Origin: Callorhinchus milii
Taxonomy: Eukaryota
Direction of reading: 5' to 3'
DNA length: 64,000 nucleotides
Assembly: GCF_018977255.1 (NCBI RefSeq)
Contig: NW_024704742.1
Span: 124,560,001-124,624,000, forward strand
In this document: piece after piece, positions 39,901-64,000 of the stretch
How the letters are laid out: every line of letters begins with the position of its first letter
How positions within the stretch are numbered: position 1 is the first letter of the stretch
Notes under the pieces: model-generated
The model's input: only the letters and a program-made list of their open reading frames with translations
Databases searched by the model: none
Told to the model about the DNA's origin: nothing
Translations under genes and position numbers: made by a program

Positions 39901-42900
39901 TAAAACCTTGTGGGGGAGTAAAGAGTCAAAATCTTTAGTTACAACTCAGATATAAGTTGAACTCAGACTTTTTTGATATCACTAGATTAATAAAAACACC
40001 AACACCCAAGCACATTTTAACAAAACTTGCTCAATGCCAACTTCCACATGCAGTATAATGAACGGTGTCCAGGATGTGTACCAAGTTAAAGGATAAATGC
40101 TCTTATTAGTTTTATGGTATTCAGCATTACGTATATTTTTTATTCCTACAAACATCAATTAAGAAATCATCATACTGTATATGAAAAAAATTCAGTTGAA
40201 TTGTCATTGTCAGGGGCCTGATGTATGCTCATAGCTAAAATTAGCAATCTTTTCAGCTAAATCTTTACAATGGCAAATGTCATTATAAAGCCTACAAGAA
40301 ATACCTTTTTTTGTGCCTACAAGAAATGTCACCGTTATGCTGCTAAAATAAACGCTGTTATGTGCAATGCTACACACAGTGGATAAAAAAAGCAGCAGTT
40401 CTGCAACAGGTTTTATTAGCAGTGACTCAGTCGAGTGATGGGAAATTGTGCAGACAACTGGCCTAAGTCATGATCGAATCATGGGATCCTTGTTCTGAAA
40501 TCCCAGGGGTACTTTGTGGAGTGGGTTGCCTACAGAATTCCCTGTTAGCAACTTGGAGTGAATCATATTAGTGACTCCCTTGCAAACTGCTACTTTTTCA
40601 ATCCCAGTGTTGGCATATTCTCACCAGGTAAAATAGCAATCATCTTTAGAGCTCGAAATGCTCTTAATGCAGATAGTCCGGGAATTTGAGGAAATGCCAG
40701 TGTCAGATACCTGCAAAAGATTTTTTAAAATTATTATGAGTTACAGTAAGAATCCTCTCTGATTTTTTCCAGTGGGCATGATTAACCCTCAGTTAGATAA
40801 TGTGGTATAATTTGTGGCAGTTTCTAACAGGATTTCTTAATCAGGAAAATGGACCCTCCAATATGGTGCTGGGGGAAGCCCATTACATTATGGAGATGCT
40901 GTCCTTCAGGTGAAACTTCAGACCAGATCCCGTCTACCTGTTAAGATGGATGTTAAAGATCCCATGAAAATGCTACTTGAAAAGGTAGTAGAGTTTCTTG
41001 CACTGTGCACAAAATTAGCTGTTGAATTTGCCTACAAAATGTAATCACTTCACTTTGCAGTTAGTCCCGTGAAGTGCTTTGAGATGGTCTTCAGACACAA
41101 AACGTGCTCTCTCAAATGCAAGGATTTTTTTATTATTTATATTATAGGACAGTGACGTGAGAGCTCTGCATTGTCATAGATGTCATCCGTTAGGTAAAAT
41201 ATTGAACTGAGGTTGAATCTGGCTGTTCGTGTGGACCTTAAAGATCCCATGGCACAATTTAAAAACAGAAGGGAGCTTCTCCTGGTGTTCTGGCTAAAAA
41301 ACCCTAAATAAATAAATTGGTCATGACTTTTTGTGGGACATTTATTGTTTGTGACATTAATCATGTTCGATCGCTTCGTTAAACCTTCACACATCAATTA
41401 AAAAACGAACAGAACAGACAAGAAAGAGCAGGAAAGTGAGACTTACGCCAATAGGATTACAGTGAAGTCCAACCAGTTCCAGGCATTCCGGAGGTAAGAA
41501 AATGTATGTAGAGCAAAGCCTCGGGCAAGCACCTTAATAATTACTTCAACCGTATATATAAATGTAAAGAGGTAACTAAAACGGAGATAAAGACAGCATT
41601 CAGACAATGTAAACATTAAATCAAGCATTACAATTCACCAGAAGCTGATATTTCTGATGCAGTTCACAATTAACAACAGTGTGTAAAAAAAATATTATTT
41701 TTGCAATCCAATTGCAATCTTTACAGTTAAGACTGAATCCAACAATTTGCCAAATTCTGGATGCTCTGAAATGGTACATTAATAGATTACATTTAGATCC
41801 AGGTGAAACTTCTCCCTAATGGAGGATTAGGGAGATAATTTCAATAAGATCCTCTCTGAGCTTTCTCTTTTCCAGTGTAGGGAAATCTCAGAGGGATATT
41901 TACTCCTTTAAACTGTAGCTTCTGATGAAGGGTCATGGACCCGAAACTTTGACTCACTTTCCTTTCTCCATAGTTGCTGCCTGACCTGCTGAGTCTTCCC
42001 AGTGAGTTCTGTTTTTGATATGGTTTATAAATACTGTTGTAAAAAGAGCGGCCTTTCAGTACAGGATGCACAGACCAGATTAAATAGAGGGGTATCATGG
42101 CACATCACTACATGCCATGAAGCGTTTGTGACATGTAAATATCAGGTTACTATAATGCAACCTGTCTTCTTGCTTTCATTATAAGAAATAAACACCTGAT
42201 CCATGGCTGGCAGCAAGTTTCAAGGGAGCAATACAACTGAGTGATTCATCAACAACATCAGATTACATTTGGATAGTGCCTTTCATTTCGGGCGGACGTC
42301 CCAAGGCGCTGGACAGTCAAGGATTTGATCCGAGCTGGGGGTTGGGATCAGGAGGGGTGGAGGGCCAGGAGGGTGAGGTCAGGGGGGGAACCGATTGTTA
42401 AAATTCAGATTGTTATACATTATGCAAGTGAAGTGAGAATCCCCTGCAGACACTGATGATCCAATGACGCCTCTCACTTCACAAGCACAAATGCCGAATT
42501 ATAACTTTACATTTTTTCCTTTTAGTTATGTAAAATTCATTTTTCAAAAGTAACATGTCATTTACTTTATTAATCATTAACTACTGGAGATACTGAGTAT
42601 GGTAGAGGAAGGATAAATAAAGGATATTAATGATTCAACCTAGAAGAAACCTTATATACTATCATAAATATCATAAATATTTTCTTCTTTTAAAAGAATG
42701 TAAGAAAATACTATATATAATATATTTAATAATACTGTATACAAATAAAAGGAAACATGTAATGCAATACATATTAAGTATACTTACTCTATAAAATAAA
42801 GATTTGTATTTAACGCCAGTAGTAACATATTCACAAAGATTGTTCCAATGATCACTAAATTGAAAATTGTAAAGACCTATTAAGGAAAATGAGGATTACA

Positions 42901-45900
42901 AAGTTCATTTTATAAGTGTGTATATTATACAGTATTGGGCACTTGCTGTATTAAAATGAAACCAGCTCAATGACTTGGAGTAATTTATATGCTAGCAATT
43001 GTTATCTTTATTTTATTTTCTAGGGCAAATGCTTGATAGTCTTAAAATGATCTATTCCTAGAAACATTGTGACACCAATGAGGGTCTATTTAACAGGATT
43101 ATTGTGGTACTAGGGGCAATAATGTTAATTTTTGTTGTACTTCATCAGAACACTCAATTTCCAGCCTCCAACTTTGAATACTTAATAACATAAAAATGAG
43201 GAAACATCTTTCACCCCTATTCAACTCACTCCATTGTCCAGATATTGTTTGGGACTAACCTCAGCTGGAGATAGAACCAATTTAATTTTACTATTGAAGA
43301 GAACTTAAATATTTGAAAGAAAGGTTTGTATTTTGCAACGGCACAGCTGTCAACACATTAATATTACTGGATTGCTTCTCAGCAACAAAGCAGTACACCA
43401 GAAAGCAGTTCAACTTATTAGAGTTTGATGGTTAACTGTTATTCAACTTCAACTTACTTTTATGGCAAGTCTGTGATAAAGCGCATGACAACATGTATGA
43501 CACCAGCACTTCAGAAACAGTTTTTTCAAATTACGCAACTTATAAGTTACAAACTCATTTTGTCAAAAGGAAGGATAACAAACCGTTTCGACTAAAAAGG
43601 ATATTGATGTGTCATTGCACGAACTGTAATTTTCCTCACTGGATGAGTGTGAGCAAACAAAAAGAGAGACTTGCTGGTGTTGAAGCGAAACAAATACTGG
43701 GCACTAAATCTTGTGGATATCACACAGTAGGTCTGAAAAACAATGTATAATATTAGAGGAAACATCATCAGTTACCTAGCAAGTTAGCATTAGATATAGG
43801 AGAGTAGATGGCAGGCTGGCCGTGGGTTACAAGTTAGGAATTCAAGTGAATGTTACAGTAAGCTGTTTACAGAACACCAAATGATTGAATTACTTTTTTC
43901 AATTCACGACCAGACATTTTGAACACTGTAAAATAAACACCATTGTTTTAATAAAACTGTCATGCAGCAAGTGTTTAAATATGTTGGAGTGATGGACACA
44001 ATTGAAAGATAATTACGTTGGAATTTAAGGTTTATGGCAATGACATAGTATTACAGCTCTTCGGTTTCTGTGCCACAATATATTAGCAGTCACTTTGCCT
44101 ATGAATTCCTGAGGAAATGTGTTGCAACACATATTATGAAATTTAGGCATTTTACTCAAATTGAAATGGCTGAATTTATTTTGATTTTTTTTCTATTGTC
44201 ACCTTTCACACAATGTGTACTGAACCATCTCCGCACGCACATACAACTGAATCCAGCTTCCCTCTTCACATGGCTTATTGCTGCTGAGAATGAAGTGGCT
44301 TTGCACCTGGTAGTATAATTGCAGCATAAAGAGTTATGATAATTTCAAAAGTTCTTTGGTGGTTCATTTGATCAAATTAGGTGGTTTCTTTCTGCTTTTC
44401 ATGCAGTTACAATGTGGCTACATATATTGCAGGACACCCTTAGGAGGGGATGTCCTGATAGTTTAATTGGAAACCTTATATGTCATTAATTTGATAGGCG
44501 TCCACTGATAGGTAGCAATCTCATCTCTGGATCATGAAGCTTGTGGACTGAAGCCCCACATTGAGACTGGGACTTATAGGTTCAACTGACACCTTAGTGC
44601 CCAGCGTTGAAGGTGTCATCCTTTAGACAACATGGTAAACTGAGGACTATTTGCCTGCATTCATTTGGACAGTAAAGAAGCTATGCGTTGACACTACTGA
44701 AACACAGAAGAGAATTTCCCCTGATATCCTGTCCAAGTTTCCTTACTCCTCATGTCTCTCTTTACCTAACAGCAAGTAGGAACCCAGTTGTTAGTGATTC
44801 GCAGATCGCTTTCCGGGGTAATAATCCCGAAAAGAAAATGCCGTCACTCAATCCACGACTGTTTGTGGGACATTGCTGTGCACAATTGGCTGTCATGTTT
44901 CACCCACAAATTACACAATCCACCCACTTTACAATATATCCTGTGAAGCACTTTGATACGTCTCAACAACATGACAAGGCGCTAAATCAAATGCAAAGAT
45001 TATTATTATAAAGAAAAGTGAGCCTATCACCCCCATACCCCAGTGGATTAAATTCAATTATTCTCATTTTAAATGTCTGGATGGTGTCAATCCATCCTAT
45101 CTCTCAGACCTCCTGCAACTCTACTGTCCTGGCTGTCCTCTCTGATCAATGAACACCTTCGTATCCTCTGCCTAATCTACCCCACCATGGATGGTTGAGC
45201 ATTCAAGAAATTTGCTCCCACTCTCTGGAATTCTACCTTCATCCTGCCTTTCCTTCTTCACCTTCAAAACCTGCCTTAAGATCTACCTTTTCAATTACAC
45301 TTTCAGCTTCCTCCTCCATCCCTACAAATTCACATTCCCAGCTATATAAATATGTTTTAATTGTAAAACATCTCAAAGTACGTCACAGATAATTGCTGTA
45401 AAGTGAGGTGACTAGGTATTTGTAGGTGAATGCAACAGCTAATTTGTACACAGCATGAAGTGAATAACCAATATATCTGAGGGAATATTGGCCCCTTTTT
45501 TCAAATAGTATTGTGGGATCTTTTACATCTACCTGAATAGGCAGATAGGACCATCTAATTTGAAAAATGACACCTCCAATATTGCAGCACTCCTCCAGCA
45601 CTGCACTTGAGTACCACTGTACACTTTGAAAGTCGATCTCACAAGGTTTCCCACATTAATGTTGAAAGAGACTGGCTCACATAGCTGCCATGCTCAGGGC
45701 ATCAGGGGAGATGTAGGCCAATTGCAAGCCATTATGGGCGTCCACATTTTGCTCACACAGCCCAGCTGCTTCTCATGCTCACAGATAAGGTTTTTTTCTG
45801 TTGTGTAGATCTTCGGACTTATCGAAATCCAAAAGTAGATTCTCTGCCTACAAAGGTTTGAACTGACAACATTCTGATACAGAAGTGAGAGTGCTTGTAA

Positions 45901-48900
45901 CTGAGCGAGATGACATCTGGCTATATACCAATGAACCAGGGCAGAAGATAGCCGGTTTCTTTCTTTTAAGATATCTTAATTATATATCCCCTGTTCAGTT
46001 GCAGGATTAACATCGCCTTGTCTTCATCGGATTCCTGGTTGTAAGGGATCTGTCTCTGGAGCACAGGTTCAGGTTTGTGAAACTCAAGTTTGGGGGAGAA
46101 ACCAGGAAGTATTTCTTTACATGTAGGGCACAAAACAACTGGCAAGATTACCAGAAAGAGTGATTGATGTCAAGACCTGGGGTCATTTAAGGTACATACT
46201 CCATGCACCTGATATTAATCCCTCAAGAAAAAAAACAATATTAAAGTTGGTCACTTCAATCCACGACTGTGTGTGGGACACTGCTGTGGCAATTGGCTGC
46301 TGTGTTTTGCCCACAAACATACAGTCAATTCACTTTATATATTCTGTGAAGCGCTTTGAGACGTCCAGAAGATGTGAAAAGCACTATATCAAAAGCAAGG
46401 ATTATTATTATTATATTATTATTACTTCAATGTTGTTATGGAAACATGATAGCATTGGTATTTTGGAAAATTAAGTCAAATGTATCAAAGCAGTTGCTTC
46501 ATCCAAGCTTCTCATGTGAGCCTCTGATACTTGTTTTGTGTACAATGGTTGCATGTGGAGTTCAGAAACTATGAGTCCAACTGGATCACATACTTTGCTG
46601 TGCTTGTTTCCCAGTTCAGAGCATACCACATTTCTCAGTCCAACATGTTGAACTGGGTTTATATTTTTGTCTATAATGATTATTGCTGGTCTGATTGAAC
46701 CATTATGTGAGCTAATCTATACACTGATGGGTTTGTTTAAAGTTTTATTTTCAGTGCCTATTCTGGAGGAAGAAATTTCTCCTGCGTCTAGACTGACAAT
46801 GTTTTCTTAGCATCTTAATGAGTAAAAAAAATGGCAAATTGTTAAATTCAGTCTTAAATTTGAAGCCGTTTTTCTGAAGGTTTTTTTCAGAACTAGGGAA
46901 AATTGGTTCAAAATTCAGATTGAATTTAAGAGTTTACCAAATTCTGCATGCCCTGAAGTGCTAAGGAAATAGTGAAAGCCTATGGTCAGCTAAAATATCT
47001 GCCTTCCGTTCTCCCCAAGATTCCAAAAGTTCAATTTTCTTCTACCATTGACATGAAGCTGCTGCAAATTTAAGGTTTACTGAGGTGTTCAAACCAATGG
47101 GCTGTTATTCAAAGTCTAACATCATAATCTTGCCCACCAACCCCTCTATATCTCCACCCATCCATTCAGGGCTTATTACTCCTCGTGTCATGCAAGGAAC
47201 TCTAGATAAGATGTGCCAGTCAAAACACTCACAGGATTTCCAATCTGTTGTTACTTATATATATAGGATTTCTTAGTGTCTTGATTTCAATTAATGCAAC
47301 TTGAGAAGTTCATGCCTTATTACGTCATCGAGACATCTTAAAGTGCTTCACAGGATTTTACTGTGAGGTGTAATGACTGTGTATTTATAGGCAAACATGA
47401 CAGGCAATGTTGAACACAGTAATTTGTCACAAACAGCCATGTTTGTCAAATTTTATTTGGGAGAAATAGTGGGAGAAACACCCTACTCATTTTTAAATAT
47501 TGCTCAGTAGTTGTGGGATCTTTAACATCCATGTGAACAAGCATAGAGGACCTCATTCAAAACATCTCATTCAAAAGGCGGCACCTCTGACAATGCACTG
47601 AAGTGTTAGCCTGGACTGTTAGTTCAAAATCCTGATGTTGTGCTTGATCCCATAACCTTCCCACTCAAAGGTGAGAGGCTGATCTGGCTCATATGGTGTT
47701 AAATCCTAACACAGACACAATGGGCCAAAGGCCTGATTCTCTGTGTGTGTAACACTCTGTAATGCTTTCCTCCTTCACACTGTTCTATTGCTCTTGCATC
47801 AGTATTTTCTAAAATTGGGGAAGTTTCCATTAAATCTCAAATTATTCATGACTTTAAAAGATCTGGAAAGATCCGATATGACTATGTGCATGATATGTTA
47901 ATCTTACTCATCTCTGGCCAAGAACACTTCTGTCATTCATCTGCCATCACCTTGGATATTTCCAAAGCATAGTCAGGATTTTGTACTATGCACGTATTAT
48001 CATCCAATGGTTTTCCATCAAAGATATGTTTAAAGCTATCAAGTTTCCTCTTAAATAGCTCTATCTGTTCTGCTGTTGATTGTTCGTTCTCTGGCTAATT
48101 TTCTTTCAACTCAAGGGTAAATTAGCGCAAAATACTAAATAAAGCTCTGGGTCTGGAAAATTTATTATAAGACATCAAGAAAGATTAGCTTTTATGCAGC
48201 ATAACATAGTTATAATTATCATTGAATATATTTTCAATATTCACGTATTAATTCAGATTATAGCAAGTTTGTGGAAAGTTACAGATATTTACATTTTTCA
48301 AAAGCCAGTTTAACCAATGCAAAGATATCTTGAAATAATATGTAAGTATCAAACTCTGCATGTTGATTCAAGTTGCAGTATTAAATTTAGTGGAAATTTA
48401 CAGTGGTAAGTTATGAATCGTATGTCATAATTAGTGACATTCAGACAGCAGCACAAGCAACAAGTAACTGCAAGGGGTTGGATAAAGTACTTTTATTTAT
48501 TCTTTTGTTCATGTTGCCTTTCTGTAATAATCCTGCCCACTGCCTGACGCATACCTTCTCAAAGCTTAAGTAAGATATACAATGCTGCTTATATAAGCAT
48601 CATATACAAGCGCTCCAGGACACTGTCCCACCGTGAAGGGTGCTATATAAATGAAAGTTGTTGTTGTTATAAATGTGGTCATTCCCTTATGGTTATTTGT
48701 GGAACATTGCTGTGCACAGATTGTTTACCTATTACACTACACAGTCTTTGCAGGAAATGCTGTAAAGTACTTTGAGACGTTTCGACGATGTGTTAAGACA
48801 TATCAAATGCAAGGATTGTTACACGCTTAAGGAAGTTGCACTGATCAGAATAAATTTGAAGCATTTCAACATTTTTTAAATGAGATAGCATGAACCATGA

Positions 48901-51900
48901 TAAAAGAATGAAAATAATAATAATAATCCTTGCATTTGATATAGTGCCTTATCACGTCTTCTAGACGTCTCAAAGCGCTTCACAGAATACATTGTAAAGT
49001 GAATTGACTGTATATTTGTGGGAGAAACATGGCTGCCAATTGCACACAGAAGTGCCTCACAAACAGTCGTGGATTGAAGTGACCAATTTATTATTGTTTT
49101 TTTCTTCTGGAGGGATTATTATCAGGCATATGGAGTATGGAAACTTGCCCAAGGTTTCGCCCTGCTGGAAAATGAACCCAAGTGTCTTGCTTGCGAGGCG
49201 AGTGCTCTGACCACAGAGCTACAGGACTCCACAAGAAGGCACTATTATTATTGCTAGATTGTGGTCAAAACTTTTCATTGATGTTTTTATACATTGAACA
49301 CAAATTATATCTGTAAAGGGATACTTCATTCAGGTCACTGATTGTGTCTCCACAATTTTTTTGAAAACGTACATCGAATAATTTACATTGTACAAAAGTT
49401 GCACCTGCTCTCTCACAAACAGTTGCAGAGGTCATGAGTTGGGTCCCATGTACTGTACATTATGACAGATTGTTCTTAGTTTTCCAGGAACTAAGCCTGC
49501 TTTGAAACTTCCCGACAGCTTCTTTCAACATCATGCTGGAATCATGCTTCAAAGACTTCAATGCCCTTTTGTTCAATTTCTTCTTTTGCGTGTTTATTTC
49601 CAATTTCTATATTTATCAACTGTCTGACAAGGGTTCCAACATAATAATATGGTTCAGCCAATATATACTGTAACTGGGATCAACATATTGGCATAAAATA
49701 TTGCCATTGTTTCAAGACGTAAAGCGCTCTGGGACGCTATCCCGCGTGAAGGTTCTACATAAATGCAAGTTGTTGTTGTATTTTTGAATCGATTAAACTG
49801 GCTTTTGAAACATGTTCCTTCTATCTAAGCAACAATCGCTTCCAGATTCTCTATTCTGACCAAAAGACATTATCTGGACATTCCCTCTGAACTGTCTGAA
49901 GGATGTTTTAACATTTATTTCCACGTTACATTGTTAGAGAGTGCAGTACCAATATGCCTGTCAAACACCAACATTAGAACAGACTTTTAATAAAAGCCAC
50001 AGTCCATGAGCAAAACAATAATAATAATCCTTGCATTTGATATAGAGCGTTATTATGTTGTCCAGACTATTAAAACAAACTGCAAATGTAAATGTCCCCA
50101 ATTATGAAGTTCCCCCAGAACATTAACTTGCATTTTTTGCCTTCACATCCTGACTGAATTGCAATCCAAACGCTCAATTCCTTATGTTAGATTTAATAAT
50201 AATAATCCTTGCATTTCCAAACAATAATGGGTTTTGCCCACAAATATACAGTCAATTCACTTTACAGCATATTTTGAGACGTCTAGAAGAGGTGAAAAGC
50301 GCTAGATCGAATGCAAGGATTATTATTGACATTATTATTGCATTTGATTCGCAGCATTTGCAACTTTTTTGAAAAAAAAATAAAAACGTGGTATCTGTTT
50401 CCCATGCAAGGGGGAAAAAAAAGAATGCATGTACGGATAATAAACTTTACGATATATCAAATCGAAAAAAAAAAGTGTTTTTTTTTTGGTTTGCAACCCA
50501 ACCCATTGACTGCTTACAAAACCATTGCAACTACTCGGACTCGATAGTTTGTTGCACCGAATCAGCTGACTGCCAGCACCCTATGAGCCCCCTCCCTCCC
50601 TCTCTCTCTCCCTCCCTCCCTCCCTTTGCTGCAGTTCTTTGCAAAGTTCGTCGCCGGGTTTTAAGGGATGGGAGTTGTAGTGACGCACTAGTTAAATGAC
50701 GGCCGAGGTACAGTACTTTTTATTGGTAATATTGAGGGCATTTAAGCATTGCACTGAGACACGGCGGGCGGGGAGCGCTGCACGGCCGCTGTGCAGGGAG
50801 CAGTGGAACCCTGTGCTGGCTCCGGGCTCCGGGCGGGTGATTGACACATCAGCACCTGGTGCTCGCGCCCTCCCCCCCCACCGACCTCAGCTGTCAATCA
50901 GCGCCTCCCGCCCCGCCCCCCCGCAGCTGTCAATCAGCGCCTCCCGCCTCGCCCCCCCGCAGCTGTCAATCAGCGCCTCCCGCCCCGCCCCCCCCGCAGC
51001 TGTCAATCAGCGCCTCCCGCCCCGCCCCCCCGCAGCTGTCAATCACCTGGTGGGTACAGCTCCAGCTCCATTTAATAATAATAATAATAATCCTTAATAA
51101 AATTATCCTTAATAATAATAATAATAATTTGTGCCTCTCTGCAGCTCAGAAAGCGCAGAGCTCACACCCGGGGAGTTTGAATTCACCCCGTTTTATTCTG
51201 ACTCTCCAATGCAGGGCGGGTGGGGGGGGTGGCGGGGGGGTCCCGGCTGCATTGTCGGAGGTGCCGTCCTTTGGGTGAGACGTTAAAACGAGGGTGAGCG
51301 TTAAAGATTCCCATGGCACTATTCGACAAGGGAAAGGAGCGTCTCCCAGTCTCAGGACCGACAATCCCCTCCCGGAAAGTTAACCATTCACCGCATTTGC
51401 CGACAAATAACGTGAGAGTCATACTTTGCCTACAAATACTTGTGAAGAGCTTTGAGACACCTTGGTGAGGTGAAGAGGCACCATATGAAATACAAGGTTT
51501 ATTATTACCACTTTGACTGTGCTTTTGACCACCTATTTCTATTCCCCCTCCCCGCCCACCCCCACACATACAAAAAAAAAATTCAGCCCTCCTCAGCCTT
51601 TTTTAGAGCATGTGAGACGTTCTCCCAACATGAAAGACTCCATATAAGTTTAAATTGTATTTTTGCAAGGACTTACAGAAGGGATAGATAATGGAAAGCA
51701 GGTCGAAGAGGTATATTTTGAGATGTGTGGTGGGAGCTTGTCAGAGGGATTCCTGTAATTGGAGACCTGCGTTCTCCGGGATTTGGTGACCAGGGTACGT
51801 TCCTTCTTGGGGAGAGAGTGTGCATTTCATAATGAACAAATGGAAACCCTACCTAAAGTTGGACCCTGTCAAATGGTGCTTCGGTATAATGCTTTGGTCC

Positions 51901-54900
51901 ATTTATAATGTGACTGTACAGTGGCCCCACATTATACCAGAATTGTAGTGCAGTTGTGACCTGGGAATTCTGACCAGTAGCCATTTTTACATCACTACCC
52001 ATTATAATGTAATTATCACTCCAAACCACTGAGATATATGGAATTATCGTTAGCTTGTCTCAAAGATTCTTAAGCTTGTGATGGGTTTGTTGAACACCTG
52101 GCTGAACAAGGAAGAAAATATATTGGTGCTTCCACTTAGAATCGTGGTGGGCACCAAACTCAGAAAGTTTACTATCACAGCATAATAAACTTTAGATAAC
52201 TTACTGCTTTGTGTGCAAACACTATGTGTGTTAGACCTTTAAATTTAAACACATTGAAGTTGTTTTTGTTGTCGTTTCCTCTCTTACAACGGTATTGTCG
52301 TTCTCATTTGCAGAGTATGTTTTGGCTCCAAAATTACTTGTTGTTCTGAGTGACTTATTCTTTCCTATGGAAACTTCTTCCTTAGCTTTGAAGCTGGTTG
52401 TCTGTAAATTATTTGAAGAACTACAAAAAGGTGGCTTTGACCTTTTTTTGATTCCTAACCTCAGGACTCCTATGCTGCAAAAGCTGGATGTTGAGTATCT
52501 GTTGAATTGAGGGTCAGCCTTCGTGGAATGGTAATAAGTCAGCAAAAAAGAGACAGGTAGAGGAAAGGAGGAGAAGAAAGAAAGGAAAAAAACAGTAACA
52601 AAGTACTGTAGATTGTCACTGAGTAACCATAGTGACAGATCATTACTGTTATCCGTTCTTCATTGAGATGCTTTCATACATCAGCACACAGAAACGCTTA
52701 ATAATAATAATCCTTGCATTTGATATAGCGCTTTTCACAACTTCTAGATGTCTCAAAGCGCTTCACAGAATAGATTGTAAAGTGAATTGACTGTATATTT
52801 GTGGGCGAAATGTGGCAGCCAATTGCGCACAGCAATGTGCCACAAACAGTTGTGGATTGAAGTGACCAATTTATTATTTTTTTCTTGAGGGTCTATCATC
52901 AGGCGTGTGGAATAAGGAAACTTACCCAAGGTTTCACCCTGCCAGGAATCGAACCTAGGTCTCTCCAGCCCTGAGTGTGAGTTGGGATACTGCTGGAGTC
53001 TAACCAGCTAAAAACACATAGCTTGCCATTGATAGCACTGTCTGGCAAACTTTCCCTTCCTTATGAAACTACGTAGGGCTTTGGCTTGTAGGGTCAACAT
53101 TAACCGAGTGGAAGGATTCCCTGCCACCAGTGACTGGTCTTCTGTTCCACGTCCTGCTGATGAGCCAGAAGGTCTTGGATGTCATCAGCAGTGCCCTGTA
53201 ATACTGTGGAACCCCCTGGCTCAGGAACTGGACTACCGAGATGTCGATTCCGATATTCCGTTGCCAATCGTGTCACCTTGGAGCCAGTTCAGCTCCCCCA
53301 AGGAGTGCTTGTGTGGAATGTAAACACCAGTGAGGACCAGTTGGGCTGAATGACTTATTTCCTTGTAATATTACTCTGTGAAGTTCTATGTAAACTGTAT
53401 GTATACATTGTAATGAGACTAGCTCTCTCTTGGTCCCTTGATGATGCTACATAATAATTCTATCTTTTTATTTGGATTGCTTTTTGGTGTTTACCATACT
53501 GTAGCACTGTAGATGAGTGACAAGAATCTGGTTCATGATCGATAATAATTAACTATGGAATTAAGTCAAGGAGAAATAGTAAAAACATCCAGCTTGGTTG
53601 AGGCCAGGACACTAAACTCATTTAAAATAAGAGCTTGATGTGGTGATGGGAGGATGGCTAGGTAGGTATTCTAGAAGGATAAGATCAGATGGGCCTTCTA
53701 CAACCAAACTGCTCTTGTGAATGGCATTAAATTCAATTTCAATCAAAGGGATTCTTAGTACCTTCCAATAATATTTGTAAATTTTGCCACAAAATTGTGG
53801 TTTTGACAGTGAATATTGTACGTCAGTCTGGCTCAATTGTAGCACTTTCGCCTCCGAGTCAGAAGGTTGTGGGTTCAAGCCCCACATCAGGATTTGGAAC
53901 CCATATAGTTTAAGATGACGCTCCATTGCAGTGCTGGGGATGTGCTGCTGGAGGTTGTTGGAGGTCTAGTCTTTCCGATGTGGTGTTAAATCAAGGTCGC
54001 ATCTGCCTGTTCAGACGGATGATGAAGATCCCTATTAGAAAAGATAAGGGAGTTCCTCCTAGTGTCCTGTCCAACAATCTCCCAAATAAAAATTGGTCAC
54101 TCATTCTGTGGCTGTTTGTGTGACATTGCTGTGCGCAAATTGGCTGCAACTTTCACCCACAAAAACACAAACGGTCTTTATACACTTTATAGAATATCCT
54201 ATGATATCCTATAGCATTCTTCTGATGTGAAAGGCTATACTAAATGTAAGGTTTATTATTGACATAGCTGGTTCTGGATTTAAAACAGATGCTCTCTGTT
54301 AAATTGAGAGCATTTGATTATAAATTGACAGGCAGAAAATGATGTACAGTATTCCAAATGTGACCTCACTGGTGATGTATGTATACAAGCTTAGATTTAT
54401 TTCTTTCATCTCTTAGCCACATGTGTAACCTAGTACTGTATGTGATTTGCTTGGTTTTTCATTGACTGGAAACTATATTTGCACCAAAATCCTTTTCCTT
54501 CTACATCTCTGCTAGTGGATAACCATTCTTCCTTGTACTCACTCATTATTTTGTGCTGTCTAAATCAAAATATTTTCTTAAAGTACCGTCATGTTTTCTG
54601 CAAACTGTTGGTGTATCTTGCATTAATTCTGTTTTTTATTTTTTAAAACAGGTATCAGTGCTGTATTTTGCCAGGAGTGCTGAGTTGTCAGGAGTTCGTT
54701 CTGAAACACTTTCTGTGCCACAACAATTAACCTCTATGCAACTCTGGGAGAAAATAGTTAATAAACACCCAAGGTAGAAAACAAATGCCATATCCTTCAA
54801 TATGTTGAAGGATCCTACTTATCTTGACTGATTTATTCAATTTAAACTGCTAGAACATTTTACTGTCTAAGAACTGTTGTAAAATTAAGGAATTAAATAT

Positions 54901-55956
54901 ATTTTTTCTGAATATTGTATATTACTGGCTAAATAAAAATGGTAGTTTATGTGTCAGCCTGGATCTGTTTGTAGCACCCTCGCCTCTGAGTCAGAAGGTC
55001 CATGATTTTGAACTCATATAGTCTTATCTGACACTCCAGTGGAGCGCTGGAGGTGTGCTGCATTGGTGGATATACTATCCTTCAAATGAGATGTTAAAAC
55101 ACGGTTGTCTTCCTGTTCAAGTGGATATTACAGATCCCATGGCACAATTTGAAAAGAGAATTTTCCCACTGCCCCACCCATTTAATCCTCAAAATACATG
55201 GCTGTTTGTGGGATATTGCTGGGTACAAATTAGCCACTGTGTTCACCTACAAGTGCCACCGAACAATACACTAATTCCTGTGAAGAGCCATGAAACATCC
55301 TCCTGAAGTGAAAGGTGCTATATCAAATTGAAGGATTCTTATTATTATTAAGGCAGATCCTGCTGACCTCACACCATAACCTTTTTTTTTGTGAGACAAA
55401 TATCTTGCTACATTGTGTGCTCATACCTTCTGGAAAACCGTGAATTTCCTTAAGCATTATTGACTCACACCGGTAGGGAACAATCCAGTCACAACAACAG
55501 CAACAACAACTTGCATTTATATAGCGCCCCCTCAGGCAGGGTGGCGTCCAACAGTGCTTGTATCCACTTTATATCGCGTGTTAAAAAATAATGATGAATT
55601 GCTGTTATTTCCTGTTTTTTCCTTACCTGCCCAACAGTCTCATTGCCATAAGGGATCACGTCCTTCTTGCAGTTCGTCAGGAATATATCCTCCTGGGAGA
55701 TCAAATTCTGTTCCTCCAGCCAGGCGACGAGATTGCAGTCATCCCCCCTCTCAGTGGGGGCTAGCTTTTGGGATACGTATGCAGGTATGTCCAACTTCTC
55801 CTCAAATATGGGATCAATCACAGCAGGACGCACGTTATAATTCCTGATTGATTCTTTAATTTTAGCCAGGTCCAATGATTCAGTTGATCCCTGATGTTTG
55901 AACTTCCCTTTTTGTCTGCTTCCTCGTAGTCTGGAGTCTCTGTTATAAGGAGCCAT
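5700..55956 (-). CDS. Voltage-gated sodium channel alpha subunit, Nav2 (DSC1/BSC1/NaCP60E-like) type; 19 coding exons in window, incomplete at 3' end (continues below position 1)
   Basis: Exons join in frame to 1111 codons covering N-terminus, DI S1-S6, DII S1-S6 and DIII S1-S4. All introns are GT-AG except one AT-AC. Pore motifs are TLDYWEN (DI) and CGEWIEP (DII). Confidence 0.93.
8670..8843 (-). CDS. Channel exon 18, DIII S2-S3 (TLDDKYSR...FNMEMVFK...[15 protein letters not shown])
   Basis: 174-nt phase 0-0 exon, YFTNxWxxLDF motif; not in ORF track. Confidence 0.97.
9167..9357. mobile_element. Short element with about 40-bp imperfect terminal inverted repeats (MITE-like)
   Basis: cttgggtcaattttgtgtatttcttaatgcaatttct versus reverse complement of agaaatcccattaagaaacgtagcaaatttgatcacaag. 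Confidence 0.5.
9478..9567. repeat. Direct tandem duplication, 45 bp x2
   Basis: cattggaatggattagaagggaaaag(a/g)aca(t/c)ttgacaagtttttt repeated. Confidence 0.9.
9945..10375 (+). mobile_element. Deu-domain SINE (SacSINE1/AmnSINE1-like), family B
   Basis: tRNA-like head gtcagcctggctcagttggtagcactc; central GTTAAA..GAGG...TTAAAGATC.CATG..CT..TT.GAA core; shared 3' tail. Confidence 0.75.
12170..12625 (-). mobile_element. Degenerate CR1 LINE fragment
   Basis: ORF 12277-12486 ...[23 protein letters not shown]. Confidence 0.8.
13622..14037 (-). mobile_element. Deu-domain SINE family B
   Basis: Reverse match to head (gtgctgctaactgagc, ttctgactcagaggcg) and core. Confidence 0.72.
14761..15120 (-). 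CDS. Channel exon 17, II-III linker end and DIII S1 (LETLEEVQ...DPCFP...[22 protein letters not shown])
   Basis: PCFP and FxxxxLFVILLS motifs; donor CTG|gtaagt. Confidence 0.95.
15786..15964 (-). CDS. Channel exon 16, II-III linker ([14 protein letters not shown]...ENGSAVVM)
   Basis: ttttttcgtag acceptor, ATG|gtaata donor; phase 1-0 bridges exons 15 and 17. Confidence 0.78.
16942..17188 (-). CDS. Channel exon 15, DII S6b and start of II-III linker ([16 protein letters not shown]...KCTT)
   Basis: [10 protein letters not shown] motif; donor A|gtaaga, phase 1. Confidence 0.93.
17243..17601 (-). mobile_element. tRNA-derived SINE family A
   Basis: Same head and core; (AAT)n tail. Confidence 0.88.
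17925..18107 (-). CDS. Channel exon 14, DII pore loop and S6a ([40 protein letters not shown]...AGNFL)
   Basis: Filter Glu in CGEWIE; PRW motif; phase 0-0; not in supplied ORF track. Confidence 0.98.
18704..18871 (-). CDS. Channel exon 13, DII S4b-S5 ([17 protein letters not shown]...GNLT...[12 protein letters not shown])
   Basis: [14 protein letters not shown] motif; phase 0-0; not in supplied ORF track. Confidence 0.97.
21774..21959 (-). CDS. Channel exon 12, DII S2-S4a ([13 protein letters not shown]...[10 protein letters not shown]...LSMIRSLRM)
   Basis: GWNxFDFIIV motif; phase 0-0. Confidence 0.97.
22030..22445 (+). mobile_element. Deu-domain SINE family B
   Basis: Head and gatgccgtcctttggatgag...aaagatcccatggcac core. 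Confidence 0.75.
24101..24348 (-). CDS. Channel exon 11, end of I-II linker and DII S1 (...[10 protein letters not shown]...[21 protein letters not shown]...GNT)
   Basis: WxCC and ITICIxxNTL motifs; AG/GT bounded. Confidence 0.96.
25853..25970 (-). CDS. Channel exon 10, I-II linker ([39 protein letters not shown])
   Basis: ttcttttctag acceptor, A|gtgagt donor; phase 0-1 bridges exons 9 and 11 exactly. Confidence 0.8.
26924..27112 (-). CDS. Channel exon 9, DI S6 ([39 protein letters not shown]...KEKM)
   Basis: NLxLAVVAxSY motif; phase 0-0; donor ATG|gtaagg. Confidence 0.95.
28651..28795 (-). CDS. Channel exon 8, DI pore loop (RCPTNFTC...[34 protein letters not shown])
   Basis: NPNxGYTxFD motif and filter Asp in TLDYWEN; AG/GT bounded. 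Confidence 0.98.
29139..30276 (-). mobile_element. L2 LINE fragment interrupted by a SINE (insert 29752-30045)
   Basis: Both halves are collinear with the L2 copy at 61769-62540; [18 protein letters not shown]. Confidence 0.85.
29752..30045 (-). mobile_element. tRNA-derived SINE family A
   Basis: Reverse-complement match to 30281-30589. Confidence 0.88.
30281..30589 (+). mobile_element. tRNA-derived SINE, family A (A-box TAGCTCAGTGG, B-box-like GGTTTGATTCC, 3' GCAAGGA(TTA)n tail)
   Basis: Full-length copy; many related copies in window. Confidence 0.9.
32990..33670 (+). mobile_element. Degenerate L2 LINE 3' fragment
   Basis: [30 protein letters not shown] tail. Confidence 0.8.
33877..33937. 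repeat. (AAT)n microsatellite, about 20 units, derived from SINE tail
   Basis: Direct reading. Confidence 0.95.
33877..34238 (-). mobile_element. tRNA-derived SINE family A with expanded tail
   Basis: Same head and core. Confidence 0.88.
34421..34481 (-). CDS. Channel exon 7, DI turret ([19 protein letters not shown])
   Basis: atttcacag acceptor, GG|gtgagt donor, CGN motif, phase 1-2. Confidence 0.92.
35447..35650 (-). CDS. Channel exon 6, DI S4-5 linker, S5 and turret ([12 protein letters not shown]...[15 protein letters not shown]...IQNQ)
   Basis: AG/GT bounded, GLKTI and [16 protein letters not shown] motifs. Confidence 0.97.
37668..37945 (-). mobile_element. L2 LINE fragment
   Basis: [27 protein letters not shown]. 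Confidence 0.85.
39750..39830. repeat. AT-rich low-complexity minisatellite (TATACACAT/TATACTAT units)
   Basis: Direct reading. Confidence 0.7.
40625..40710 (-). CDS. Channel exon 5, DI S3-S4 ([28 protein letters not shown])
   Basis: ttttgcag acceptor, G|gtgaga donor, S4 RxxRxxK pattern, phase 2-1. Confidence 0.95.
41447..41575 (-). CDS. Channel exon 4, DI S2-S3 ([20 protein letters not shown]...[16 protein letters not shown])
   Basis: AG/GT bounded, 129 nt, E..K and WNWLDF motifs. Confidence 0.97.
42788..42868 (-). CDS. Channel exon 3, DI S1 ([26 protein letters not shown])
   Basis: AC acceptor, donor GA|gtaagt, hydrophobic S1, phase 2-2. Confidence 0.93.
42869..43604 (-). other. U12-type (minor spliceosome) AT-AC intron, 736 nt
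   Basis: 5' ATATCCTTTT; branch site TTTTCCTTAAT about 10 nt before terminal AC; only this junction keeps the frame. Confidence 0.93.
43605..43732 (-). CDS. Channel exon 2 ([43 protein letters not shown])
   Basis: Acceptor tttttcag; conserved Nav pre-S1 segment; ends at U12 donor ATATCCTTT. Confidence 0.95.
48913..49230 (-). mobile_element. tRNA-derived SINE family A
   Basis: Same head and core. Confidence 0.88.
50669..50681 (-). promoter_or_regulatory. ACTACAAyTCCCA promoter motif (ZNF143/THAP11-associated)
   Basis: Plus-strand TGGGAGTTGTAGT = ACTACAACTCCCA, 14 nt before the MOCS2A ATG. Confidence 0.7.
50696..50707 (+). CDS. MOCS2: MOCS2 exon 1 coding part (MTAE)
   Basis: ATG ACG GCC GAG|gtacag in CpG island; phase 0 joins exon 2. 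Confidence 0.8.
50696..55764 (+). CDS. MOCS2: Molybdopterin synthase sulfur-carrier (small) subunit MOCS2A, complete, 86 aa; exons 50696-50707, 54652-54773, 55638-55764
   Basis: Spliced translation [97 protein letters not shown] and the C-terminal PPxSGG di-glycine are MoaD/MOCS2A hallmarks. GT-AG sites in compatible phases. Confidence 0.96.
50888..51045. repeat. GC-rich minisatellite, 36-37 bp unit CAGCTGTCAATCAGCGCCTCCCGCCCCGCCCCCCCG, about 4.4 copies
   Basis: CAGCTGTCAATCA at 50888, 50924, 50960, 50997, 51033. Confidence 0.95.
51140..51510 (+). mobile_element. Deu-domain SINE family B (CpG-retaining copy beside the CpG island)
   Basis: ggaggtgccgtcctttgggtgagacgttaaaacgagg...ttaaagattcccatggcactattcg. 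Confidence 0.75.
52700..52966 (-). mobile_element. tRNA-derived SINE family A (5'-truncated head)
   Basis: Same core. Confidence 0.85.
53820..54260 (+). mobile_element. Deu-domain SINE family B
   Basis: Head tggctcaattgtagcactttcgcctccgagtcagaaggttgtgggttcaagcccc plus core and tail. Confidence 0.78.
54652..54773 (+). CDS. MOCS2: MOCS2 exon 2 ([40 protein letters not shown])
   Basis: T-rich acceptor aaaacag, AG|gtagaa donor, MOCS2A similarity. Confidence 0.96.
54952..55350 (+). mobile_element. Deu-domain SINE family B
   Basis: Same head, core and tail. Confidence 0.75.
55627..55956 (-). CDS. Nav2-like channel, putative coding exon 1 (MAPYNR...[35 protein letters not shown]...NETVGQ)
   Basis: ATG at 55956 preceded by acceptor ttttgtggttgcag (exon would start at 55977); 110 open codons; strong phase-0 donor CAG|GTAAGG matching phase-0 exon 2. 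T-ESL and DPxFExxxxIP resemble conserved Nav N-terminal motifs. Overlaps MOCS2 exon 3 antisense. Confidence 0.65.
55638..55784 (+). CDS. MOCS2: MOCS2 exon 3 (MOCS2A C-terminus, stop 55762-55764, then 20 nt spacer)
   Basis: Acceptor cccaacag, donor CAG|gtatgt, LAVRQEY...[14 protein letters not shown]. Confidence 0.96.
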
Positions 55957-56644
55957 ACTGTTCTGTATGTAGCTTCACTGCAACCACAAAACATTAGTAA
56001 AAAATGAATGCAGTAAGTAATACATTTAAAAAAAAGTTAATTGCCAATGTTTTAAAGTATTATAGTAATAATAATAAACCTAACATTTGGTGGAGCACTT
56101 TTCACACTTTTCACATTCACTTTACATTGTAAAATTCAGTGACTTTGTGTTTTGTGGGTGAACACGACAGCTAATTTGTGCACAACAGTGTCCCACAAAC
56201 AGCCATGAAGTGAATGACCAATTTTATTTGGTGGGATACTGAGAGAAATTCCCTTCTCTTTTCCATGGGATCTTTAATATCCACCTGAACAGGCAGACAG
56301 GGCCTCAGATTAACTTCTCATCTGATGGATGGTATCTCCAACAATGCAGCACATCCCCAGCACTGCATTGTAGGCCTCGAATAAGGGGAACTTTCCTTTG
56401 TAAAGTGTGGGATGTCAGGATTTGACTATGGAACATTTTCCACTCTTTGACCTGTTTTTATTTGATTTAACACACACGAACAGCACGTGCAACACATGCA
56501 CAACACAGCCATCGCCATGATAAAAAAGTATTCAAACCTTTGCAACCATAAATCTACAGATATCAAATTCATACGGTAGATGTGCTTCACTGTTCATAAT
56601 TAGACATTGTACGAGTGGTCTCAATCAGAGAACTTGGTTCTCCC

Positions 56645-57140: not shown

Positions 57141-57253
57141 AACAGTAAGAATTGCACAAAGAAGATTCCTGTAAAGATCACCGATGCAGTCCAAAAGGGA
57201 GACATTGATAGATTTTGTGATTTACACAGTTGTATCTTTTTTTTTCAGTGACC

Positions 57254-57374
57254 ATGCATGAGAGTGACGATGAGCCCAAGGACTTGATAAAAGTGACCTA
57301 TGAGAAGCTTTCCGCCGATGAAGTTTCAGAGTCAGTAAAATCTCCATCTTGTGGAGCTGTGTCTTTGTTTATAG
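57254..57374 (+). CDS. MOCS2: Molybdopterin synthase catalytic (large) subunit MOCS2B, first coding exon (exon 4 begins 57249); further exons not found in window
   Basis: MHESDDEPKDLIKVTYEKLSADEVSESVKSPSCGAVSLFIG matches the MoaE/MOCS2B EKLSxDEV...SPxCGAxSLFxG segment; tttttcag acceptor, G|gtaagt donor. Confidence 0.95.
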
Positions 57375-57821
57375 GTAAGTTCTACAACTAGAATTCCTGC
57401 CTGGTGTGGCTATTGGCATACTTTGTATTCTTATTCTTGGATTACTTTCTCTTTTCAAATAGTGTCCCGGGATCTAAAATGTTCACCCGCACAAACAGAT
57501 GGGCACTTCGTTTAAAATCTCATTTGAAGGATGGGATTTGAGACAATGCATCTCTTCCCCAGCTCTGCACTGGAATGATAGCCTATACTATGAGCTCCAA
57601 GCCCTGATGTGCGGCCTGAACCCACAACATTCTGACCTAGAGTTGAGAGTGCTACCAACTGAACTAGGCTTACACATAAACACAATAGCAAACAATGGCT
57701 CAAACAATGTTTAAAGTTTGCAGTTTTTCCAATTCATTTTTTTAAATACACTTTCACATTTTTGCGTTTCCTAAAATATCTTACACAATTTTCAAGTGTG
57801 CAAAAATACGCTGGAATATCA

Positions 57822-60515: not shown

Positions 60516-61768
60516 GTTGCACATAGGTCGGTAGAAAGGTCTCAGGTTTGATCCCTAGTTTTTACTGAGTTAGCTGATCTATGTCGGGGTGGCAGTGTAG
60601 TACTGTAGAATCCCTGAGTTAGGGAGGAAACATATCAGGTTGAGTTTGTGCTTACTAATATTAATCAGTGATTAACTCTCTCCGTCCCCCTCCCTCCCTA
60701 ATTAAAAAATATGTGTGTGGAGACAATGATGAGGCCATGATCAGGCTTGGATGCTTATTCTAGATTTATTTGTGTTGGGGTTCAAAACAGACAAGCCTGA
60801 TGCTTTTTATCCTGTACACATTCGCCACAAATTTAACAATATTTAAAATTGCAAAACCAAATATTATTCGGTAAATATAATAATCTTTGCATTTGATATA
60901 GCACCTTTCACGTCAGTAGAATGATTCAAAGCATTCACTGTACAGTGCAGTGACTGTGCATTTTTGGAGCTGGACGAATGATAGGGTGCTACAATGTGCC
61001 ATTGATTTTTATTCACTGTTTCTGCTCTTTTAGTTTTGTTCAAATAATCTAAATTTAAATTGTTGCTGAGGGAATGTGTAAGATATGAACCAGCCACCAT
61101 TCATTTAAAATAATCAGCTGCACTATTTGATGTAGATAAGAAACTTGTCAGTTGGTTGTGGGAGTTTTATAGTTAGTCACCTAAGCTAGTTGTGATGAGC
61201 AAGATCACGCAATAGGAATGATATCGATGAATGCACAATAGCTTTATATTTGGCAAGTTGCTATGTTTTTTAGCTTGTCAGATTTGGAAAGCAACTTGGG
61301 CCTACCTAGTTTGTTTTTGGAGGCTTCCAGCCCTGACATTGTTAAAAGTTTCTGAAGTGAATTGCAGCACTGGATGTGTGCTGTGTTTAAGCAATACTGT
61401 CACACCTAATAGGGGCAGTGACTGCGCTATTATTGACATTGCAAACAATAGTTTTTAATCACAGTTGTTCAAATCCAGGATTGTTAACAATCACTCTTTT
61501 CTGTAAATGCTAAAGCAGCATCCATTATTTATTTACAAATTTCCATTGAATACTTTCTCAGATCATGTTTCGAGTCTAAAATATAAAATTTCATTCACAG
61601 TTTGCATTTGTTTACACTTGGTTTGAATTATTGAAGAGATGACAAGTGTAGTTACCCTTTGCATATGAAAACAGTATAATGTTGGCATGTCCGCCCTGTC
61701 ATTGAGAATTTATTTTAGGAGCGCTGCATGTACCTATTTTGCAATTCTAAAGTAAATTCTGTATATTC

Positions 61769-62830
61769 AACAACAACAAACAACAACAAAAGTACATTTG
61801 TATAATGCCTTTCACGTCGGAGGACATCCCAAGGCACTGGACAGACAAAGTTTCGGACCTGAGCTGGGGATCAAGGTTGGGGAGGGTGGAGGGCAGGGGG
61901 GGAAGCAGGGAGATCGAAAGCAGGGGACGTGAAGCAGGCCAGAGCCCGCTGAGCGAAGTGTGCGAGCAGGATGGTAGGGAGTTAGGAGGTTGCAGAGGTA
62001 AGGGAGTGCGCTTTGAAGGTGAGTACCAGGATCTTGAACTGTATCCTCTGGATGAGGGGAAGCCAGTGGAGTCGGGCGAGGATGGAGGTAATAGGGTCAG
62101 GAGCGTGGTGCAGTGTTCTGGATGATCTGCAGCCTGTGGAAGGAGGAGTTAGGGAGGCCGACAAGCAATGAGTTTGCATAGTTGAGCCTTGATGTAATGA
62201 AAGCATGTATGAGGGTTTCGGTGGCCTGCGGTGTGAGACAGTGGCGGAGGCGGGCGACGTTGCGGAGGTGGGGGAAGGCAGAGCGGGTCATGGCGCAGAT
62301 GTGGGGTAAAAGGATAATTGAAGGTCAAACAAGGCCCCAAGGTTCCGGACTGGCTTAGCAAGGTGGGGTGTGCAACCATGGATGGTGATGCTGTCAGCGC
62401 CTGAGATGAGGAGGCGCTGACAGGAGCCAATCAGGAGAGCCTCAGTCTTCATGACGTTCAACTGAAGAAAGTTAGCTCTCATCCAGGACTTGATGTCCGA
62501 CAGACATTCTGTCAGCACAGCAGTGGTCCTGGAGTCGAGGGTGGAGGCAGAGAGGTAGAGTTGGGTGTCATCCGCATACATGTGGAAGTTGACCCCATGT
62601 CTGCGGATGATGTCACCAAGAGGGAGCATATAGATATTATAGAGGAGGGAATCAAGGACAGAGCCCTGAGAAACGCCGCACGAGACGGTGCGGGGGATAG
62701 ATGAGAAACCGTTTGTGGAGATGAAGTGGAGGTGGTGTGAGAGGTATGATCTTAACCAATCAAGGACAGAGCCGTGAAGGTTGAGGTGAGAGGAGAGGCA
62801 GTGGATGAGGATAGAGTGATCGAAAGTGTT
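61769..62830 (-). mobile_element. L2-type LINE 3' fragment with RT domain
   Basis: ORF 62288-62854 contains GVSQGSVL...FHMYADDTQLY and WMRANFLQLN; downstream LARLHWLP...IQFKIL; (TTG)n tail. Confidence 0.93.
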
Positions 62831-64000
62831 GATATAATGTTCTCTGTAGAACATTTATCCTGGTATTACCCTGCAAGAAAATCTCTCCTCTGGAGTTGCC
62901 TGTCATGAGATAGATGCTATAAAAAAATCTGTCTCTCCTTCTCTTCCTGTCATATGCAGCTGACCTACCGTGAATGACAAAGTGCAGAACATTTTGCAGT
63001 GGTAGTGAACTAACCATATGACCAAAAACAAAGCAGAACCTATAAATTCTTAGAAGAGCTTTGAAAAAGAGAAATTGTGAAAGGCATGAAATGCAAACGA
63101 GAGAATAATATTAATAATAATAATCCTTGCATTGGATATAGTGTCATTTGTGGCAAGAAGACGTCTCAAAGAGCTTCACAGGATATACTGTAAAGTGGAC
63201 TTGATAGGCAGAATGGGCTGTTTCTGTGGAGTAGGATTCAGTGAAGAACTTTAGAAAATAAAACACAATAACTGGATAGTGTGCTCCCGTGCTGAAACAG
63301 CATTGAACGATACACCCATTTTTAGATGGTGCTTTGTTTGGTAGAACTCCTTGATTGTGGCACTCAGCTCCGATATTGTATTTTTAAAGTCACGATATTG
63401 TGCATGAAAATAAGAAGATAATAGGAACACATCTTAATTTCTGTTTCTCAAGCATTATCCTCTTTGTAAATTACAAATCCATAATGCATTCAGCTGAGGG
63501 AGGAATTGCTATTTGAAGGAATAAAATGTTTTGCTTTTCAACGCACGTGTGATTCTGATCCATTTTTATAATTAAATCTTGCCTTTGATGTGCTAAAATT
63601 GTTTTTTTAAAAAAACGTTTGATTACAATTCCCACAGCCTTAAATTAAATTCATCCACCATTGACATTCTGCGCAATTCCATTTACTTCATTTTTAAACA
63701 TTTTAATAAGCTCACGAATAGCAGAAAGCTTGTCAGATTATTATTGAACCAAGAACAAGCAAGATATAAAATGAACAAATGCAAATATGTAATGAAATAG
63801 GCTCCTAAAGACCAACAGATACAAAATAAATTTGATTTAGTGAAACAAATCAAATGCATTCATTACAGATTTATTGACCAAAACTATCAATGGTCCATTC
63901 ATCCGAACCCCATCTGCTTCTTTCAGATCACATGCTCTTACTTCTACAGGCCAAATACTAAACCCAGTAAATCTTTGATCCATGGGACTGTAATAGTTAT

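Follow-up and report, generated by a model that had tools for sequence, protein, structure and literature searches.

Evidence for an antisense coding overlap between MOCS2 exon 3 and the first coding exon of a Nav2-type channel in Callorhinchus milii

Two reading frames in one exon

The stretch of DNA analysed here, 64,000 nucleotides from the chimaera Callorhinchus milii (contig NW_024704742.1, positions 124,560,001 to 124,624,000; hereafter the window), carries the gene MOCS2 on the plus strand and a channel gene of the Nav2 type on the minus strand. Protein matches at 99% agree with C. milii as its source. Our analysis indicates that the same DNA encodes the tail of MOCS2A on one strand and the start of the Nav2 channel on the other, and that this double coding is real and old (probability of about 0.87). 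Over the 127 bases that lie in both reading frames, one per strand, each frame is intact and supported by homology. The splicing and translation of the channel in C. milii are predicted. The shared exon comprises the following features.

55627..55956, minus strand: predicted coding exon 1 of the Nav2 channel, with 110 codons, its ATG at 55956 and a phase-0 donor (from the frame, homologues and joined exons)
55638..55784, plus strand: MOCS2 exon 3, entirely inside the channel exon (from spliced contigs, where it appears as 55636-55781 with shared junction letters)
55638..55764, both strands: dual-coded stretch in codon/anticodon register, with the last 41 codons of MOCS2A, one split codon and the stop on the plus strand and channel codons 65-107 on the minus strand

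Re-reading of the sequence confirmed two statements of the initial annotation, namely that minus-strand positions 55956-55627 form 110 stop-free codons, beginning with an ATG and ending at a CAG/GTAAGG donor, and that the MOCS2A and channel frames are in exact codon/anticodon register. On the plus strand, the C-terminus of MOCS2A extends from 55639 to 55764 and ends in two glycines and a stop. It scores above the Pfam cut-off for ThiS and matches human MOCS2A (5mpo_A) with an E-value of 4.5e-15, being a ThiS-family sequence with the Gly-Gly end of MOCS2A/MoaD. The overlap is fuller than first described: not only the MOCS2A-coding part but the entire MOCS2 exon 3, with both of its splice sites, lies inside the channel exon.

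By eye, as had been observed before, MOCS2A exon 3 has eight leucine codons and contains no TTA, CTA or TCA; exon 2 uses TCA twice and TTA once. An antisense frame open across exon 3 only would arise with a chance of 0.08-0.19 under the codon usage of this channel (879 codons), and 1.5% of the 64-codon windows in the adjacent intron DNA (43734-50500, minus strand) are free of stops. The openness of the frame across exon 3 alone is weak evidence, and it is homology rather than these odds that is decisive.

Homologues of the channel frame

Searched against 1.84 billion cluster representatives, the frame returned three matches, two Logan clusters and one bacterial protein. The Logan proteins P0005 and P0002, 63% and 58% identical to the frame, have the same MAP start and continue with Val-Arg (GTAAGR-like) at the point where the chimaera donor sits. 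The bacterial protein, a nonribosomal peptide synthetase (P0004, E 4e-5), was set aside as a chance match. Identity extends to the non-overlapped codons 1-58 (36/58 in P0005 and 36/57 in P0002, about 62%), and these are conserved without any plus-strand coding reason, because they lie in MOCS2 intron 3. It had been cautioned that antisense frames in register can be passive shadows of the sense gene, a caveat that leaves the conservation of these codons unexplained.

When a profile of the three sequences was compared with residues 1-220 of each of 131 long channel proteins, only P0023 matched, with 57.9 bits against 2.8 for the runner-up. P0023 is the RefSeq Nav2 model of the lamprey Lethenteron reissneri, and its residues 1-118 match in the window only 55956-55654, starting from Met1 (tblastn E 6e-12; next match 0.30). 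The in-frame junction with channel exon 2 claimed in the initial annotation was recovered, as exons 1-4 join into 668 nucleotides with no stop; they are colinear with P0023 from Met1, and the exon 1-2 junction falls at the same point. A single Gln, placed exactly at this junction, distinguishes the lamprey isoforms X1 and X2, which suggests that the lamprey junction has read support. Thus, the earlier proposal that the frame is the first coding exon of the channel, overlapping MOCS2A, is supported by the lamprey Nav2 N-terminus and by the homologues P0002 and P0005.

An AlphaFold prediction was made for residues 1-230 of the lamprey protein. Its exon-1 part shows a block pLDDT (predicted local distance difference test) of 34-58 and two weak helices; this low-confidence fold is consistent with a tolerant cytoplasmic segment, but is not proof of it. 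In most top hits of the predicted structure the Nav match covers about 115 columns, as many as the residues encoded from exon 2 on. Neither the frame nor its profile found a meaningful match in Pfam, PDB sequences or Atlas. A word-indexed search for longer relatives scored none of 72 candidates, and was insensitive here, the lamprey protein itself being missed.

Comparison with the N-termini of other Nav channels

The first half of the frame had also been said to resemble the T-x-ESL and DPxLE-type elements of Nav N-termini, and this claim failed, since the likeness does not rise above shuffled controls. Aligned with invertebrate Nav N-termini by hhalign, the profile reached a probability of 0.7% and a score of 14.4, beaten by 7 of 30 column-shuffled controls; with hidden Markov models of invertebrate N-termini, 76-376 of 500 shuffles scored as well as the four sequences. 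The alignment to Nav2 N-termini that had been suggested as a check succeeded with the lamprey and gave no signal with invertebrate Nav N-termini; no relationship of the segment to the N-termini of invertebrate Nav1 or Nav2 was detectable. As the motif likeness is statistically unsupported, the exon looks new to vertebrate Nav2 and not like an ordinary Nav exon. We consider it probable that the first exon is wholly new rather than containing a diverged old first half. A different origin, with no bearing on present function, would be a real overlap whose exon begins with a much-diverged ancestral Nav first exon, only the 3' half having been overprinted on MOCS2. It is less likely, although it has some appeal by eye: the P-Y/F-x-R/K-x-S start and DPIFE..L.IP recall the invertebrate PFTRES and DPxLE.G..P in order, and the best hhalign alignment pairs DPIFE..L.IP with DPxLE.G..P. 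However, neither the hhalign score nor the hidden Markov models do better than shuffles, and an old channel exon would have to land inside a MOCS2 intron.

Substitutions across the overlap

In the shared register, the third codon positions of MOCS2A are the first positions of the channel. Among channel substitutions in codons 66-106, those able to be silent for MOCS2A number 8 of 14 in P0005, 10 of 17 in P0002 and 14 of 28 in the lamprey. The same class makes up 4/22, 1/21 and 5/39, respectively, in codons 1-58, and 17-28% in the other channel exons (37/133, 40/143 and 38/147 in two sharks and a ray, which are approximate controls for P0002 and P0005, and 28/163 in the lamprey). For the overlap against the other exons the Fisher p values are 0.007-0.03 and 3e-4, with 7-10 alignments for each count, five columns trimmed per end and antisense-stop sites dropped. 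As judged from these aligned substitutions, MOCS2A is shown to constrain the changes that the channel accepts in the overlap. Moreover, changes that would force a MOCS2A replacement affect 1 of the 27 residues common to the human protein versus 4 of 12 variable ones in P0005, and 1 of 27 versus 5 of 12 in P0002. Since the forced changes avoid the human-shared residues, both proteins look as if they were still under MOCS2A constraint.

Structure and identity of the channel gene

The remaining 5' features of the channel gene are listed below.

55957..56000, minus strand: leader of 21 nucleotides, candidate acceptor with its AG at 55979-55978, and a CTAAT resembling a branch point (from sequence only, putative use)
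55621..55626, minus strand: donor of channel intron 1, GTAAGG, whose complement falls in the pyrimidine tract at the acceptor of MOCS2 exon 3
43605..43732, minus strand: channel coding exon 2 (from sequence and joined-exon alignment)
42869..43604, minus strand: U12-type AT-AC intron, phase 2, with donor ATATCCTT, branch TTCCTTAAT and AC acceptor
42788..42868, minus strand: channel coding exon 3 (from sequence and joined-exon alignment)
41447..41575, minus strand: channel coding exon 4 (from sequence and joined-exon alignment)

The upstream acceptor mentioned in the initial annotation has a plausible counterpart in the candidate AG and CTAAT, and its position 21 nucleotides 5' of the channel ATG implies a non-coding exon further upstream. 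A moderately CpG-rich stretch (observed/expected ratio 0.58-0.70) lies beyond the window, inside a MOCS2 intron at window-equivalent 68501-70000; it is a possible site of the channel promoter, or merely repeat. At the other end of the exon, the channel donor is complementary to part of the MOCS2 pyrimidine tract (window 55618-55637, CCTTACCTG), 11 nucleotides ahead of the acceptor, so that both splice signals share DNA. The CCTTACCTG stretch is branch-point-like too, but unusually near the AG.

No site in the window other than the frame resembles the lamprey or eight invertebrate N-termini. We rejected the start exon given by RefSeq (44309-44205), as the chimaera model that contains it skips the conserved exons 2 and 3. 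Gene predictors may lose the 5' end of the channel in part because the AT-AC intron follows exon 2; according to the available text of PMC9199108, such U12 introns are poorly handled by splice predictors, and the one in SCN9A (c.377) is likewise of phase 2 and follows the second coding exon, with no difference from the intron described here. The Heterodontus and Hemiscyllium models run through or around the donor of the AT-AC intron (42869-43604). Each exon tested was found in a single copy in the genome. The domain II pore exon at 17904-18107 (minus strand) is intact in the window and absent from both the chimaera RefSeq model P0009 and the Heptranchias model P0013.

The selectivity filter is DEEA, not DEKA; its D, E and A were taken from P0009, and the E of domain II, whose exon is missing from that model, was read from the window. 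In a FastTree phylogeny of 18 proteins and 1257 columns, with vertebrate Nav1 left out, the channel groups with Nav2, sister to those of sharks, bichir and the named lamprey Nav2 with support 1.0, and this group stands apart from para/Nav1. By tree position and filter residues it is the same gene as Lethenteron camtschaticum Nav2 (AUY61917.1). The lamprey Nav2 models P0023 and P0024 have DEEG in the filter; jawed fish and invertebrate Nav2 have DEEA. Nav2 channels are associated with a slow Ca2+/Na+ current, and the chimaera channel was assigned to them on sequence grounds. In the portions available, PMC6259924, citing Zakon et al. 2017, reports vertebrate Nav2 in ghostshark, coelacanth and lampreys, and PMC12021243 its loss in zebrafish.

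Many short interspersed repeat copies, also abundant in the sequencing runs guessed to be RNA, occupy channel intron 1 (window 44800-56300). Reverse-transcriptase-like fragments were recognized by eye near 3080-3600, 29200-30300 and 61750-62850.

The MOCS2 gene and its transcripts

Besides exon 3, the window holds the following parts of MOCS2.

50501..51500, no strand assigned: CpG-rich region at the start of MOCS2, within channel intron 1 (CpG observed/expected ratio 0.72)
50696..50707, plus strand: coding part of MOCS2 exon 1 with the MOCS2A ATG, within channel intron 1; it yields a MOCS2A of 86 residues, and its junction is not among the contig pieces listed
54652..54773, plus strand: MOCS2 exon 2, within channel intron 1 (from sequence and spliced contigs)
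57249..57375, plus strand: MOCS2 exon 4, which carries the ATG of MOCS2B (57254); the later exons of the gene are outside the window

None of the 14 sequencing runs listed is recorded as RNA; ten guessed to be RNA contain 0.11-0.26 of the words. Contigs, which are unstranded, were assessed from four of the 14, and their tables are dominated by repeats. Among the pieces listed, MOCS2 exons 2 and 3 are joined in two of four guessed-RNA runs and exons 3 and 4 in three of four, as in a bicistronic MOCS2A/MOCS2B transcript, the RNA nature of the runs being guessed. Among the same pieces none covers 55785-55956 or channel exons 2-5, a result that weighs neither way in tables so swamped by repeats. 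Genome searches that score only the best candidates found one ThiS-family match and one MoaE locus, besides a weak match (E 2.2) on another contig, and a single MOCS2 locus. MOCS2 intron 1 contains a GC-rich tandem repeat of 36 bp (4.4 copies, 96% matches; window 50888-51045).

The MOCS2B frame is open from 55652-55784 into 57249-57375 on the plus strand, with its first ATG at 57254. An ATA at 55685 lies 77 nucleotides upstream of the point where the last sense codon of MOCS2A ends, a distance that equals the length of the human overlap given in the available text of PMC9607355. Three frames are open over 55685-55764, and this segment would be triple-coding if the MOCS2B frame were initiated at a near-cognate codon.

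Evidence against double coding and remaining alternatives

Several observations weigh against double coding at this locus. No channel transcript, junction read or peptide was seen in C. milii, and the exon is absent from all 24 public jawed-vertebrate models (14 species), which disagree among themselves and mostly are without exon 2. The lamprey N-terminal link comes from RefSeq models of one lamprey species, and three other lamprey models (P0024, P0028 and P0137) do not have the exon. P0002 and P0005 are known from protein only, with no DNA or context, and their orthology is assumed. In the lamprey, 7 of 27 MOCS2A-invariant positions are incompatible with MOCS2A versus 6 of 12 variable ones (p 0.14), among them a proline common to the human, staphylococcal and E. 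coli proteins, and the lamprey segment may be a divergent MOCS2A or a relic. Finally, as regards suppressed synonymous change in MOCS2A, the identity in the overlap (24-27 of 41, from protein sequences only) is also what a simulated passive shadow yields at a synonymous divergence (dS) of about 0.8-1.2.

A former channel start that is now unused, in a silent or decaying gene or as a rare isoform, with only MOCS2A translated here, would fit the missing channel transcript and the loss of Nav2 in some lineages such as zebrafish (PMC12021243, available part). We regard it as very unlikely, because the frame, the donor, the AT-AC intron and exons 1-4 are all intact, only 2 of the 21 listed alignments to a shark orthologue across the window contain a stop, both beyond an exon edge, and the conservation of the intronic frame needs ongoing selection. 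Least credible of all is that the minus frame is open simply as MOCS2A avoids three codons and that the channel starts at another exon: the appreciable chance of an open frame over exon 3, the ability of MOCS2A constraint alone to yield the overlap identity at moderate dS, the different starts of the public jawed-vertebrate models and the ready origin of frame-0 antisense frames under some codon usages (PMC11266595, in the text available) all agree with it, but not the conserved intron-3 codons with the same start in two other species, nor the lamprey model that opens with homologous sequence followed by exon 2, nor the want of any other match in the window to the lamprey or invertebrate N-termini.

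Origin and proposed mechanism

Under double coding, the MOCS2A tail is the older frame, because it shares its ancestry with bacterial MoaD. The homology of the lamprey segment is with the antisense reading, so the overlap would predate the split between lampreys and jawed fish, and the channel segment would have been overprinted on MOCS2A before it. More tentatively, and with odds somewhat below even, Nav2 may, in the stem lineage of vertebrates, have taken its new first exon from the antisense of exon 3 and intron 3 of MOCS2, both readings persisting in chimaeras, sharks and lampreys. An overlap of that age would be some 500 million years old.

In the arrangement that we propose, the two genes would be interleaved head to head. 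MOCS2 would be transcribed on the plus strand from the CpG-rich region at 50.5-51.5 kb, inside channel intron 1, and the channel on the minus strand from a promoter beyond 55980, splicing into the exon that spans MOCS2 exon 3 with its 330 coding bases. The channel transcript would then lose an 11.9-kb intron holding MOCS2 exons 1-2, as well as the AT-AC intron. The frames could coexist because the free third positions of MOCS2A are the first positions of the channel, and a cytoplasmic N-terminus would tolerate the exchanges so allowed. The mature RNAs of the two genes would be complementary over 147 bases, and a narrow expression of the channel might limit polymerase collision and duplex formation.

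Relation to known overlaps and significance

The closest known case is human MOCS2 itself, a bicistronic gene with the same exon and the same MOCS2A tail, which is identical at 27 of 39 residues and has the essential double glycine. According to the available text of PMC9607355, human MOCS2A and MOCS2B share 77 bp of exon 3 on the same strand. That overlap joins two subunits of one enzyme, whereas the chimaera MOCS2A overlaps with an unrelated gene of the opposite strand, and the chimaera MOCS2B ATG lies in exon 4, unlike in the human overlap. THRA/NR1D1 is a vertebrate example of an opposite-strand exon overlap.

Surveys (PMC2335118, PMC2151771, PMC2330155; in the parts available) describe coding overlaps between opposite strands as rare, with 51 of 615 opposite-strand pairs in human, and mostly lineage-specific, head-to-head ones being the least conserved; 1-5 exon/exon overlaps are conserved between human and fish. 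The two latter sources, to the same extent, regard double-strand coding as rare and short-lived in vertebrate nuclear genes and common in viruses. The surveyed cases likewise involve two protein-coding genes sharing exonic DNA; in the chimaera, however, a whole internal exon is read both ways in register, with a signature that reaches the lamprey. No description of the MOCS2/Nav2 overlap was found in the literature searched, outside which most subscription papers fall, and the locus is not mentioned in the available parts of PMC8192821 or PMC11266595. The cited accounts of vertebrate Nav2, as far as their available text goes, and the 24 jawed-vertebrate models contain neither the first coding exon nor the MOCS2 overlap. 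The novelty of the overlap is probable, not established.

The exon supplies the missing N-terminus of jawed-vertebrate Nav2; since none of the 24 public models has it, a full-length clone for current recording cannot be built from them. The overlap would link an ion channel to the catalytic end of an essential enzyme subunit, with natural controls in lineages that keep or have lost Nav2 and in MOCS2 exon 2 versus exon 3, so that overprinting and dual constraint become measurable over deep time. If the proposed origin is true, this would be a nuclear coding overlap kept since the vertebrate stem, overlooked by annotation and released only upon the loss of Nav2.

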